Shown here: positions 39,857 to 42,553 of the stretch, piece after piece
Layout of the letters: each line of letters starts with the position of its first letter
Position numbering within the stretch: the first letter of the stretch is position 1
IMG/VR virus record: IMGVR_UViG_3300002835_000148
Direction: 5' to 3' (one strand)
DNA length: 64,000 nucleotides
DNA from: a virus
Notes under the pieces: generated by a model
The model's database searches: none
Told to the model about the DNA's origin: nothing
What the model saw: only the letters and a program-made list of their open reading frames with translations
Program-made: the position numbers and the translations under genes

Positions 39857-42553
39857 TTAAAAATAACTCTCTAACTTCTTCATTTTGAATGATAAATTAT
39901 CTCCGAACCCGCACTCGGCGTCCAGCGGTATGTTGGGCAGCCACTCTGGAGGTCTACGAAGCTCCTCTACAATAAACTTCATAGCTTCTAGTGATTGCTC
40001 GGTCGGTACAATACCGTAGAGCGCGTCATGGATAGTCAGCCCGACAGGGTACTTCTTGTGTACTCTTACCATAGCCTCGCCCATCACGCACCTAGCCAAT
40101 GCCTGAATGATATTCTGAAAGCATTTGGCGGCGTGTATATGCACTGGCCCTTTGCGCGTTTTGTACACCCATTGTAGCCTGTTCGAGCTATCCATAGAGG
40201 GTGTCAGGTCATTATAGGTCATATACAAATTGGAAGGTAGCCTGATGCCCCGCGCTCCGATAACTTTCAGCGATAGCGCTCCTAAACCAATGTCGTATTC
40301 TTCATTTTGTGCAATCGCGTACAGCGCGTTACCTGCATCATGCCAAGCTTTTTTGACCATATAGTAATCATCTCGGTAAATTTCTACGACTTTTTTAGCA
40401 AATGTTTCTCCAATGTCCCTACCGGATAGCATCTTGATTTGCTCACGTAATTTCACATGGCCTGTGCCATAGATCAAACTTAACTGACAGTTATGTACAA
40501 TTATTGGGCCGGAATCAGTCAAGATCGTAAATCTGTTCCTCGGCCCGGCGCAAAGCAAGTCGTAAACGGGCAATCTCCGCCTCAAGCTCACTGATTTGGC
40601 GCTTGTTTCTGGTATTCTCCGCTCTGGAGATAAACCTAATGTTGCCCGGTTCGTAATTACCATTATTGTCGATGCGATCCATGTCAAACTCTGGAACATC
40701 CCAACCATCAAGTGTTTGCGCGTGCGCGAGAAACTGCGCTTTATCCATGCGCCATAGTGCGTACACCGTGATGCCTCGGCCCCCATAGTTTTTATAGTTG
40801 CCGTCTTTGGTGTTATGGCAGCGGTTAATTGCTGCGGCGATTCGGTTAAGCAACCTACGCCGATGCTGGTCATTAGGCATGGCTTTGGTGTAAGCCCAGA
40901 ACCTTTTAGTCCGACCTGCTGTAAGCCCGCATTGATGGCATCTAGTGCTTTTGAAGTCTTTGAAATTATGCTTATCCACAGTGTATTCAGGGAGGCCGCA
41001 GTCGCATTGGACAATAAGCGCGGCAACTCCCCCTCGCGGGCCTTGAATGTAGCCTGTAACGGTAAGTTTGCCGCTCCTATACCCAATGCTTGGGAGAGGA
41101 TGGACGCATCTGAAACCACTGATTGACTTTCCAACCACTGAGTCCCTGACCACACTAGATGATCCGGTGTTAACCAACTCCCGCAAAGACTCAATGTTTC
41201 TTTGTAACCTTTCGACACTAATCCTTGGTGGCATACCCACTCCTCCCCATCCCATACTTTGTCTGACAAAGAAACCGCTTCAATCGGCTTCCATCCTGAG
41301 TAGCATAATACTAGAGTTCCCTCGGCAATACAAGTTTTTCCAACGAAGCGCTGCTCGTCTGTGACATCTGCATATCTTATGTTAAACGCTGATGCAGCAA
41401 AGTCTTTATACAGGTCAAGCCCATCGCCCAGCATCTCTAGCTTATCCATCTGCCCAGCAAAGTACAGGCCCACACGCAGCTCGATGTTAGACAAGTCAGC
41501 ACCCACTATGCTATAGCCCAAAGGCGCGACGATAGCCTTCTTTAGCGGAGAAGTGCGAGGCAAATTCTGCAGATTGATTGAGTCCACTGCCGACCAGCGC
41601 CCTGTGATCGCGCCATAGTATTTTAGAGGTACAGGTAGCGAACCACTCTCTTCTGCTATGCGAATGAAGCGCTCTGTGCGGGTTTCTTCGAGTGTGCTCT
41701 TGACGCCTAGCCTAGCAGCAACTACAGCCTGTACACTGAAATTATCATGCTCCAGCAGTGCTTTGAACTCTGCATCACTCTTGGCAAAAGCGTAGGCAAT
41801 CTTGCCCGTTCGCGGGCTTACTTTCACCGGAGGTGTAACACCAAAACTTTTAAGCACTTCCGCCAGCTTCGGGTTCGACATCAAGTCTTCTTTAGCAATA
41901 CCGCTCTCTATAAGCAGGATTGTTTTCCTACCACGCACATCCGTTAAGTGCTCGTGTAACAGTGCGGTGTCTAGTTGAAATTGTGGCTTTGTGTGCATCT
42001 TGATCGTCATGTCGATCAACGCAATTTCCGACTTGATAAATGCTGGGGCTAGTCGCTTGAACAACTCATAGGTTAGCTCTACGTCATTCTTGCAGTATTC
42101 CCCATACGCCTTTAACTCTAACTCTGCGAAATCTGCACGGCGTTTACCCATAGCAAGGACAACTTCTTCACCCTTTACCCCTAGCTCGTAGCGTTCAGCT
42201 AGCGCTTTGAGCGATCCACCTGCGTCAACACCATGTACGGCGCGGGCCATAGACAGAGTATCGAGTATCAGCTTAGGGTGAATCCCGAACCGCCACGCTA
42301 GAATAGACGCATCAAACAGCGCATTGTGAGCCAGCATAAACGCATTGGCCCAGTCAAAACAACCAAGCCAGTCCCTAATTTCTTCATGCGTTCCGCTAAA
42401 CCATGCTGCCGGTTCATCGTTCTTCTTTACTGCAACGCCGATAGTTTCATATCGTTCGTCATCTACGTAGCTCTGAGTCGTTACGTCTTTGCGTGATAAG
42501 CTGTACTCTTTGCTATAGTAGGTTTCTATATCCACCGTAAACATATTTAGCAT
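39857..42553 (-). CDS. family A DNA polymerase with 3'-5' exonuclease, intein-containing precursor
   Basis: 898-codon continuous frame. Exo motifs FTVDIET and HNALFD. Pol motif A [10 protein letters not shown] and motif C LTIHDALY. Motif B (RFVGKT / QLSLIYG) is split by an intein at aa 408-688. Confidence 0.88.
   Translation of the reverse strand: [898 protein letters not shown]
40490..41332 (-). mobile_element. intein in DNA polymerase motif B (281 codons)
   Basis: Begins CIAEGTLVL (Cys 41332..41330). KVWDGEEWV and TPDHLV blocks. Ends [26 protein letters not shown] (Asn 40492..40490) followed by Cys. Confidence 0.8.
40515..41234 (-). CDS. homing-endonuclease-like protein nested out of frame inside the polymerase intein
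   Basis: 239 aa from an ATG with GGAGG 7 nt upstream (ORF-track 40515..41255). Motifs QCDCG..RCHQCG, YKNYGGRGI and MDRIDNNGNYEPGN. Coiled-coil-like C-terminus. Confidence 0.7.
   Translation of the reverse strand: MPPRISVERLQRNIESLRELVNTGSSSVVRDSVVGKSISGFRCVHPLPSIGYRSGKLTVTGYIQGPRGGVAALIVQCDCGLPEYTVDKHNFKDFKSTRCHQCGLTAGRTKRFWAYTKAMPNDQHRRRLLNRIAAAINRCHNTKDGNYKNYGGRGITVYALWRMDKAQFLAHAQTLDGWDVPEFDMDRIDNNGNYEPGNIRFISRAENTRNKRQISELEAEIARLRLALRRAEEQIYDLD

Follow-up and report, generated by a model that had tools for sequence, protein, structure and literature searches.

How can one stretch of viral DNA be read as protein in two frames at once, and is the second reading a maintained gene or a relic? 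This question is raised by the record IMGVR_UViG_3300002835_000148, of which a stretch of 64,000 nucleotides (nt), hereafter called the window, encodes a family-A DNA polymerase interrupted by an intein, while the intein-coding DNA holds, in another frame of the same strand, an open reading frame (ORF) for a putative homing endonuclease. All genes and features concerned lie on the minus strand of the window. We consider it quite probable that the element is an intein with an overprinted homing endonuclease gene in the +2 frame, maintained by selection and mobile by homing. The original prediction, made from the letters of the window, described the arrangement correctly in every detail that we checked; its interpretation is supported as well, except for the suggestion that inteins spread within this genome, which is considered below.

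The polymerase precursor is a continuous ORF of 898 codons (39857..42553, from the ORF list), in which an N-extein (41333..42553) and a C-extein (39857..40489) enclose an in-frame insert of 281 amino acids (aa), corresponding to polymerase residues 408-688 (40490..41332). Upstream of the insert the protein matches the Pfam families DNA_pol_A (1.4e-18) and 3'-5' exonuclease (5.5e-09); it also matches phrog_17, DNA polymerase (3.7e-68), and PHROG polymerase matches lie on both sides of the insert. The insert begins with CIAEGTLVL, holds KVWDGEEWV and TPDHLV, and ends with SGPIIVHN followed by Cys. It interrupts the polymerase at QRFVGKT/CQLSLIYG, which we take, from general knowledge of family-A polymerases, to be motif B of the O-helix, R..K...(F/L)..YG. 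The continuous frame, the limits of the intein and the split of motif B thus stand as originally described. The presumptive splicing residues, namely C408, the TPDH block at intein residues 55-58, H687-N688 and C689 (the Cys+1 codon, TGT, 40487..40489), are conserved in 11 aligned relatives, and the insert is missing from the polymerase of another viral record, IMGVR_UViG_3300043468_000518 (hereafter L013), whose exteins are 97% identical. These features support the assignment of the insert to the class-1 type of inteins (Cys1, TxxH, His-Asn, Cys+1), for which splicing itself is predicted. A group I intron was rejected, with no Rfam match at E <= 1 in 35500..43500 and a continuous host frame. 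So was a fractured gene with a split intein, since there is a single continuous frame here and in all relatives except one probably erroneous record, Salmonella phage SS3e. The polymerase gene gave no megablast match among 50,697 phage records; the genome has no close sequenced relative there, and only protein-level searches were productive.

Three segments can be distinguished within the intein on the basis of its predicted structure and of the substitutions described below. The AlphaFold model, built on 12 sequences (a protein search with the intein frame returned just 11, not enough to align deeply), reaches pLDDT (predicted local distance difference test) values of 93-96 for residues 1-93 and 250-281, as against 28-55 for residues 96-247. 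The N-terminal Hint segment, with the TPDH block, comprises residues 1-95 (41048..41332) and the C-terminal splicing segment residues 250-281 (40490..40585); between them, residues 96-249 (40586..41047) form a stop-free linker in the polymerase frame, which is also delimited by low sequence identity. All but six of the 42 Foldseek matches of the intein model in the PDB are inteins or other splicing domains of the Hint fold, including the RecA, DnaB, DnaE, gp41-1 and DnaX mini-inteins, with a probability of ~1.0 for the top 21. There is no LAGLIDADG endonuclease in frame: the polymerase-frame centre has no family match in Pfam or NCBIfam, and its identity among relatives is 31%. Together with the low pLDDT, this bears out the earlier remark that the polymerase frame is featureless across the nested ORF. 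The insert might instead stay unspliced, as a loop tolerated by the polymerase in the manner of the ShiLan-type HNH insertions of methylases, and an out-of-frame ORF homologous to ours does occur in the methylase of phage Pacc40, where no splicing domain is detectable. Here, however, the set of four canonical splicing elements is complete, purifying selection acts on them in the polymerase frame, a Hint fold is predicted, and established knowledge of motif B makes it unlikely that a 281-aa insert in the O-helix of an essential polymerase would be tolerated; we therefore regard an unspliced loop as scarcely credible.

The nested ORF, at offset +2 from the polymerase frame (40515..41234; 239 aa and a stop), starts at an ATG (41232..41234) that is preceded, 7 nt upstream, by the Shine-Dalgarno-like element GGAGG (41242..41246). 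As had been noticed originally, element and start are embedded in the EEWVC block of the intein, within the polymerase codons for WDGEEWVC. Farther upstream, at 41255, another ATG in this frame would extend the protein to 246 aa, but no Shine-Dalgarno-like element precedes it. The ORF overlaps both splicing segments, by ~60 codons at the N-terminal and ~20 codons at the C-terminal side. Its product is modelled by AlphaFold with a mean pLDDT of 86.5, showing an N-terminal helix, a beta-rich segment with four Cys residues, a helical core that ends in a beta-beta-alpha unit, and a long C-terminal helix predicted to form a coiled coil. The Cys-rich segment (nested residues 75-103; 40926..41012) resembles a zinc ribbon, VQCDCG ... 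RCHQCG with the pattern CxC...CxxC; its residues C77, C79, C99 and C102 vary little or not at all among 36-37 homologues, and weak matches to the Pfam CapR domain are found in 9 of 36 family members. The conserved core (residues 120-212; 40599..40877) reads RLLNR..RCHN..YKNYGGRGI.V..W...MDRIDNNGNYEPGNIRF.SRAEN..N, with R138, C139, R153, G154, I155, V157, W161, R187, Y194 and N198 invariant. The beta-beta-alpha unit at residues 184-209 (strands 184-187 and 199-202, helix 204-209) is predicted with pLDDT values of 93-97.

Does selection act on this second protein? We read selection from codon-position profiles and per-frame identities, comparing the window with two viral contigs (L003 and L004) and a metagenome contig (L008) that align with the intein over 843 nt without gaps, at ~70-74% nt identity. 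In intein nt 1-225 and 766-843, 51-60% of the substitutions fall on third positions of the polymerase frame (60% in the C-terminal splicing segment), and the splicing segments retain an aa identity of 0.66-0.78 in that frame. In nt 226-765, on the other hand, 51-63% of the substitutions fall on position 2 of the polymerase frame, which is position 3 of the nested frame; aa identity in the central intein is 0.31 in the polymerase frame versus 0.65 in the nested frame. The nested frame shows 65-74% aa identity at 70-74% nt identity. The profiles support a switch of the selected frame that occurs twice along the intein, the splicing segments being constrained in the polymerase frame and the central ~155 codons in the nested frame. 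In the polymerase frame the centre is otherwise unconstrained, because it is there that the core of the nested protein is encoded, at offset +2. The overlap of the first ~60 nested codons with the N-terminal segment has the lowest substitution rate (0.14-0.18 per site per pair), compared with 0.24 in the non-overlapped splicing part and 0.30-0.40 in the centre; the low rate in the overlap is compatible with a double constraint. The same frame-switching pattern is repeated independently in four cultured phages of the Jerseyvirus group (Ent1, PS2, VT223 and fEg-Eco19), in which both frames are open.

Could the host frame have remained open by chance? The window offers a second case for this comparison, an SNF2 helicase ORF (36088..38574) with a 309-aa intein of the same family (36610..37536) that contains a nested ORF of its own at offset +1 (36642..37361). 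The longest stop-free runs in alternative frames of the same strand are these two nested ORFs, with 254 and 241 codons; the next longest has 119 codons and the median is 43 (54 non-overlapping window ORFs). We then kept each nested protein fixed and redrew its synonymous codons from window usage in 5000 resamples. The polymerase frame has 0 stops over the nested ORF versus 12.2 expected, the helicase frame 0 versus 18.6, and in neither case was the host frame open in any of the 5000 resamples. In a free-standing paralogue of the nested proteins (164 aa; 42547..43041; phrog_374 at 5.5e-36), which sits at the very 5' end of the polymerase gene, the alternative frames are closed by 15 and 12 stops; among more distant free-standing relatives such frames stay open for just 20-89 codons. 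The host frame is kept open by selection, beyond what chance provides. The third frame over the nested ORFs holds 21-28 stops, so that a switch between offsets +1 and +2 is impossible by simple indels. Both offsets are found within a single endonuclease family and a single intein family, which would seem to call for two or more independent origins, or else for intermediates with split inteins.

The expression of the nested ORF can be judged from its start region. No sigma-70-like promoter was found on the coding strand inside the gene, nor any RNA hairpin at the nested start of the kind seen in fractured genes (z = 0.41), and the nested ORF is therefore probably translated from the polymerase mRNA. 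The purine-rich element and an ATGCC start are kept in nine other loci (L003, L004, L007, L008, L009, L021, L029, L030 and L046), while other lineages use different sites, AAGGAG in L005 and L006 and GAGG at a third polymerase site described below. These data also bear on programmed ribosomal frameshifting, by which the nested protein would be made as a fusion with the N-extein and the N-terminal part of the intein. The absence of a detectable internal promoter would suit such a fusion, as would the fact that the nested ORF starts within translated intein sequence and overlaps the Hint domain with its first 60 codons. Yet an ATG with a purine-rich Shine-Dalgarno-like element is present in all lineages, even in unrelated contexts, the RNA at the nested start shows no unusual structure, and the nested start is placed differently in the polymerase intein and in the helicase intein. 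Frameshifting is accordingly very unlikely in our judgment, and separate initiation at the internal ATG remains the reading that we prefer.

To establish how far the layout extends, we surveyed the relatives more than 50% identical to either nested protein, together with Ent1 and two loci of 34% identity (L005 and L006). The ORF lies out of frame under a fully open host frame in 10 of 10 polymerase-type loci (L001 and L003-L011), and the same holds for all 11 helicase-type loci (L049-L059). The intein ends at the ten polymerase-type loci are HN/C throughout, and for eight of them the retrieved DNA also includes the Cys of the N-terminal junction. A search with the N-extein added eight further overprinted polymerases, including L021, L029, L030 and L046, and three additional Jerseyvirus-group alleles, checked by hand, keep the layout. 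The protein database contains 6461 relatives of the nested protein at E <= 1e-5, many of ~240-250 aa, as opposed to the 11 retrieved with the intein read in the polymerase frame. Chromosomes of Paraburkholderia (L011 and L012, ~5001-5612 of the locus) contain a 315-codon remnant with the C-terminal part of the polymerase intein and an overprinted ORF (P0096, 60% identical). The remnant is flanked by AAA_21/RloB-like and GmrSD/HNH genes, has a Tn5-type transposase beside it, and may be a prophage relic in a defence island.

Among cultured phages, Salmonella phage vB_SenS-Ent1 (Jerseyvirus) has, at the same place in motif B, an intein homologous to ours (31% identical in the polymerase frame, E = 1e-36), which holds a 247-aa ORF at the same +2 offset whose product is 45-50% identical to the nested protein of the window. 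The Ent1 intein is annotated as 'intein, encoding splicing domains' and its nested ORF is unannotated. About 161 records of the Jerseyvirus group (Guernseyvirinae) carry the polymerase intein; others, such as S104, ST4, K1H and RP180, have the flanks only. Labels of the nested region vary, from 'HNH endonuclease' in SS3e to 'hypothetical protein' in LPSE1; the coding sequence that covers it is called 'endonuclease' in Ijeoma and VT223, being in VT223 the polymerase precursor itself. In two metagenome contigs (L008 and L009) the gene callers have called the nested ORF and left the polymerase uncalled or fragmentary.

The record of SS3e (L048, NC_006940.2: 24234-28732) is the only place where the endonuclease stands in frame with intein sequence. 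Relative to Ent1 it has two 1-nt homopolymer insertions, which fuse the N-terminal intein segment to the endonuclease frame and break the polymerase into orf41, orf42 ('HNH endonuclease') and orf43; we rejected it as a genuine in-frame form, the insertions being probably sequencing errors in a 2005-era record. If taken at face value, SS3e would favor the notion that the nested ORF is a decaying or frameshifted remnant of an in-frame endonuclease, with an overlap due to recent indels. The original prediction had already pointed out that in-frame endonucleases in related inteins, differing from this genome by compensating indels, would indicate such decay, and none has been found besides this probably erroneous case: the in-frame version is present in none of more than 20 loci. 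The third-position bias of the nested frame, its aa identity reported above, and the presence of a full-length ORF with a conserved start in all relatives examined speak against decay too. The remnant explanation is already contradicted, and we consider it highly improbable.

If the overprinted gene is maintained, does the element also move? The comparison with L013, which was found with the N-extein, bears on this question. Its DNA is 97-98% identical to window positions 36063..46388, and it lacks the polymerase intein, the helicase intein and the free-standing paralogue, each precisely. The search for intein-less polymerase alleles that could define the homing site has thus provided an exact empty site, CGCTTCGTTGGTAAGACG joined to GCGCAGTTGAGTTTGATC, at which the L013 polymerase reads ...RFVGKT-A-QLSLIYG..., with Ala (GCG) in place of the Cys+1 (TGT) of the window. 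In the upstream half of the inferred homing site, on the N-extein side (41333..41350), there are three synonymous differences within 9 nt (GGAAAAACT versus GGTAAGACG in the empty allele); in the downstream half, on the C-extein side (40472..40489), four differences from the empty allele occur within 15 nt, including the change from GCG (Ala) to TGT (Cys+1), a mismatch density of 0.27 versus a background of ~0.025. Taking both inteins together, mismatches to L013 amount to 20-33% in the 15 nt beside the junctions versus ~2.5% elsewhere. The clustering flanks the polymerase intein on either side, but at the helicase intein it is confined to the downstream side, the 15 nt before the upstream junction showing no difference from L013. 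The junction changes are synonymous except for those of the +1 codons, Ala to Cys in the polymerase and Ser to Cys in the helicase. This is the pattern that short co-conversion tracts, or protection against re-cutting, would leave.

The distribution of the intein is sporadic. About 24 of 35 related polymerases are intein-less. A second motif-B site, four residues downstream of that in the window, is occupied in L008-L010 by inteins with nested ORFs at offset +2 and in L005 and L006 at offset +1; mini-inteins of 106-122 aa that have no endonuclease (P0127, P0128, P0130 and P0131) are found there too, with the pattern GK....L./C...HN/CGYG. A third PolA site, ...N/C(I/V)QALAR, in the QALAR stretch of the C-terminal polymerase, is occupied in L020, L039, L041, L042, P0125 and P0126 by the same intein family, with 317 aa in the complete proteins P0125 and P0126. 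In the four loci L020, L039, L041 and L042 its nested ORF has 219-226 codons at offset +1, and the encoded endonuclease is closest to the helicase-intein type (36-41% identity). With the mini-inteins, empty, mini and overprinted alleles of this intein family all exist; such a sporadic distribution, comprising empty and mini-intein alleles, is what characterizes inteins with endonucleases in alternative frames.

The nature of the nested protein is more difficult to define. It matches phrog_374, 'HNH endonuclease', strongly (4.8e-32), PHROG families with an HNH label being the only ones to match, apart from a marginal hit to phrog_1035; its viral structural neighbours in BFVD are labelled HNH, homing-endonuclease or AP2. 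Its motif MDRID..NG.YEPGNIRF..R.EN..N conserves D186, N198 and N207, which we take to be the metal-ligand and structural residues of HNH enzymes, in the beta-beta-alpha topology that is read from the AlphaFold model. Several results weigh against our interpretation of the element. The nested protein has no Pfam or NCBIfam match except the weak CapR zinc-ribbon hits; profile searches of the PDB returned nothing but noise, whether run with the complete protein or just its core; and Foldseek of the whole nested model against the PDB found nothing below E = 0.8, with no match to a solved HNH structure. Moreover, position 187 is an invariant Arg ('MDRID') in 36 homologues, including all three window paralogues. 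On the intein side, the E-values of the Hint matches in Foldseek are modest (4e-3 to 5e-2), and the loss of the 12-19 stops expected in the host frame is left unexplained by the model that we favor. R187 would take the place of the catalytic His of I-HmuI-type enzymes (compare VVDHKDGN...NLRWVT..N of I-HmuI); the end of the first strand in the nested protein thus appears to carry no catalytic His. We consequently do not file it as a proven HNH enzyme, even if the gene appears to behave as a homing endonuclease gene.

It is conceivable, then, that the nested protein is not a nuclease but a DNA-binding or regulatory derivative of the HNH fold kept for a phage function, the mobility of the element being due to another enzyme or a matter of history. 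The Arg at the usual position of the catalytic His, the failure of curated HNH models and solved nucleases to match, and the annotation of some structural neighbours as AP2/ERF or DNA-binding would all agree with such a role, and the HNH assignment of the homologous Pacc40 ORF has been called 'less certain' (Arsenault et al. 2025; PMC11855218). Conversely, three copies are present in the window and all are missing from the 97-98% identical L013, nucleotide changes cluster at the junctions, and the inteins are spread sporadically among related polymerases. Free-standing relatives in many phages are annotated as HNH endonuclease, and D186, N198 and N207 (residues whose correspondence to HNH enzymes we presume) are conserved. 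On balance we hold a non-nuclease role to be unlikely and retain the homing endonuclease as the probable identity of the nested protein.

The helicase intein allows the origin of the arrangement to be considered further. Its site, ...LLQIS/C...HN/CG.VY, is shared with the 11 viral-contig relatives mentioned before, whose nested proteins have 51-72% identity; those with only 33-40% identity (L060-L067) stand alone as genes, and their alternative frames are closed. The offsets of +2 in the polymerase and +1 in the helicase agree with the original account, and its inference that the two nested ORFs are not copies of one frameshifted cassette is supported by these offsets and by the comparative evidence. 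The nested proteins of polymerase and helicase are only ~32-35% identical to each other, whereas ORFs of polymerase inteins in other phages match the former at 72-81% identity, and ORFs of helicase inteins elsewhere match the latter at 66-72%. The two inteins are indeed related, as had been proposed, since they belong to one family with splicing segments that are ~45-60% identical (counted from the alignment). Their spread within this genome is not supported, in view of the closer relatives at the same sites elsewhere; a recent duplication between helicase and polymerase was rejected on account of the identities. Of note, the helicase of Ent1 (gp34, L002) contains an intein with an ordinary in-frame LAGLIDADG endonuclease, and overprinted and in-frame endonuclease inteins are therefore found together in one phage genome.

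The free-standing paralogue has altered the start of the polymerase gene. In L013 (3470-3600), which has no paralogue, GGAGGGAGGATGCCTGAT is where the polymerase starts (MPDIYCIDFETFY). In the window this ribosome-binding site and the first three codons belong to the paralogue instead (MPDKVMAV...), and the polymerase restarts at an ATG that overlaps the paralogue stop (ATATGCTAA), with a diverged N-terminus. Between the helicase gene and a PD-(D/E)XK nuclease gene there is also a 97-aa ORF (38862..39155), whose sequence ...GKDIAHKKALSKGGSN... recalls a minimal HNH motif; a Pfam scan of this ORF returned nothing.

The mechanism suggested by these results is well supported as far as architecture and selection are concerned; its biochemical steps, namely splicing, internal initiation, nuclease activity with its target, and homing, we infer from the data above. 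Ribosomes would read the polymerase mRNA straight through the insert, and the N- and C-terminal Hint segments, of ~95 and ~30 residues, would fold around an unstructured linker of ~155 residues. The Hint domain would then excise the insert in cis and ligate the polymerase at GKT-CQL. Separate initiation at GGAGG-N7-ATG would yield the 239-aa protein with its zinc ribbon, HNH-like core and coiled coil, which may recognise and cut intein-less polymerase alleles at motif B; repair from the intein-bearing copy during a mixed infection would copy the whole element. As to its origin, a free-standing endonuclease gene of the phrog_374-type family most likely invaded a mini-intein. More speculatively, the whole phrog_374-type family, including the Pacc40 ORF, might be specialised as stop-free overprints, which would have colonised one intein family at least twice independently and would cut through an Arg-Asn-Asn variant of the His-Me site, with the first ~60 codons fully dual-coding. 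The sites counted so far as colonised, three in PolA and one in the SNF2 helicase, comprise both offsets, +1 and +2. We put this extension forward tentatively and think it rather doubtful at present, but if true it would provide a tractable system for the birth of overlapping genes and for the gain of endonucleases by mini-inteins.

How new is the layout? It is known in principle and rare, and the HNH-like endonuclease family described here is not reported in inteins. According to papers that cite it, Gorbalenya (1998) described a cyanobacterial dnaX intein with its endonuclease in an alternative ORF, and a re-analysis of this intein has found frame-dependent selection on the +2 LAGLIDADG ORF (Phillips, DeSimone & Gogarten, bioRxiv 10.64898/2026.09.14.751524, September 2026). 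The dnaX intein resembles ours in having a same-strand +2 endonuclease ORF between splicing segments under an open host frame, in the constraint on the endonuclease frame and relaxation of the host frame over the overlap, and in a sporadic distribution with mini-intein and empty alleles. It differs in that its endonuclease is of the LAGLIDADG type in a cellular gene, whereas here an HNH-like zinc-ribbon family occupies PolA and SNF2 helicase genes of phages and the ORF also overlaps both splicing segments. A preprint of the Gogarten laboratory (October 2025) reported actinophage inteins with antisense LAGLIDADG or Vsr-like genes and one with a same-strand 'frame 3' gene similar to endonuclease VII, and proposed that free-standing endonuclease genes invade inteins. 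The frame-3 intein shares with ours a same-strand out-of-frame endonuclease in a phage intein, an in-frame product predicted to be unstructured, the proposed origin by invasion and the occurrence of related free-standing copies in the same genomes. Unlike its endonuclease, which is related to T4 endonuclease VII (PDB 1E7D), the nested protein of the window has no PDB match and only the marginal phrog_1035 match. The phage group, host genes and sites are different as well, ~60 and ~20 codons overlap the splicing segments here, and two such inteins with different offsets are present in this one genome.

Two other systems come close. Out-of-frame HNH ORFs in mycobacteriophage methylases (the ShiLan domain and Pacc40 gp60) likewise have a stop-free host frame over an endonuclease-like ORF, with no splicing domains (Arsenault et al. 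2025), and the Pacc40 gp60 ORF is a homologue of our nested protein (tblastn, 30.7% over ~158 aa, E = 7e-7). Those insertions are thought to stay in the protein, whereas the ORF of the window lies within a complete intein. In fractured genes a split intein has a free-standing gene for a homing endonuclease between its halves (Dassa et al. 2009; PMC2677866); they are similar in having an endonuclease gene with its own start inside the intein-coding region of a replication enzyme, and the same invasion model applies, but they consist of two ORFs joined by trans-splicing, whereas here the host frame is continuous and splicing would occur in cis. A further counterpart is the Jerseyvirus polymerase intein, with a homologous intein and nested ORF, the same site, +2 offset and selection pattern; it differs from the window in that RefSeq annotates splicing domains only and in the in-frame LAGLIDADG of the Ent1 helicase intein. 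In the literature we found no paper mentioning an out-of-frame endonuclease in PolA or helicase inteins of Jerseyviruses or their relatives. The present case stands apart by its endonuclease family, by the host genes and insertion sites, by an ORF that reaches into both splicing segments, and by two differently offset inteins lying with a free-standing paralogue within 7 kb.

With these results the very few inteins known to have their endonuclease gene in an alternative frame gain a further endonuclease family and two hosts, motif B of PolA and an SNF2 helicase, and the layout is seen not to be confined to actinophages and cyanobacteria, having gone unrecognised in ~160 sequenced Jerseyvirus-group phages of Salmonella and E. 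coli. Metagenome gene callers choose the nested ORF at the cost of a fragmented or missing polymerase, and with 6461 database relatives of the nested frame against 11 of the intein frame, polymerases of this kind are systematically mis-annotated. The case is unusually clean, the window and L013 constituting a natural before-and-after pair with exact empty sites; Jerseyviruses with and without the intein are in culture, so that direct tests of homing, internal initiation and splicing are feasible. Finally, the coexistence of empty, mini-intein and overprinted alleles fits a 'splicing first' model, in which the endonuclease gene invades an intein that already exists.

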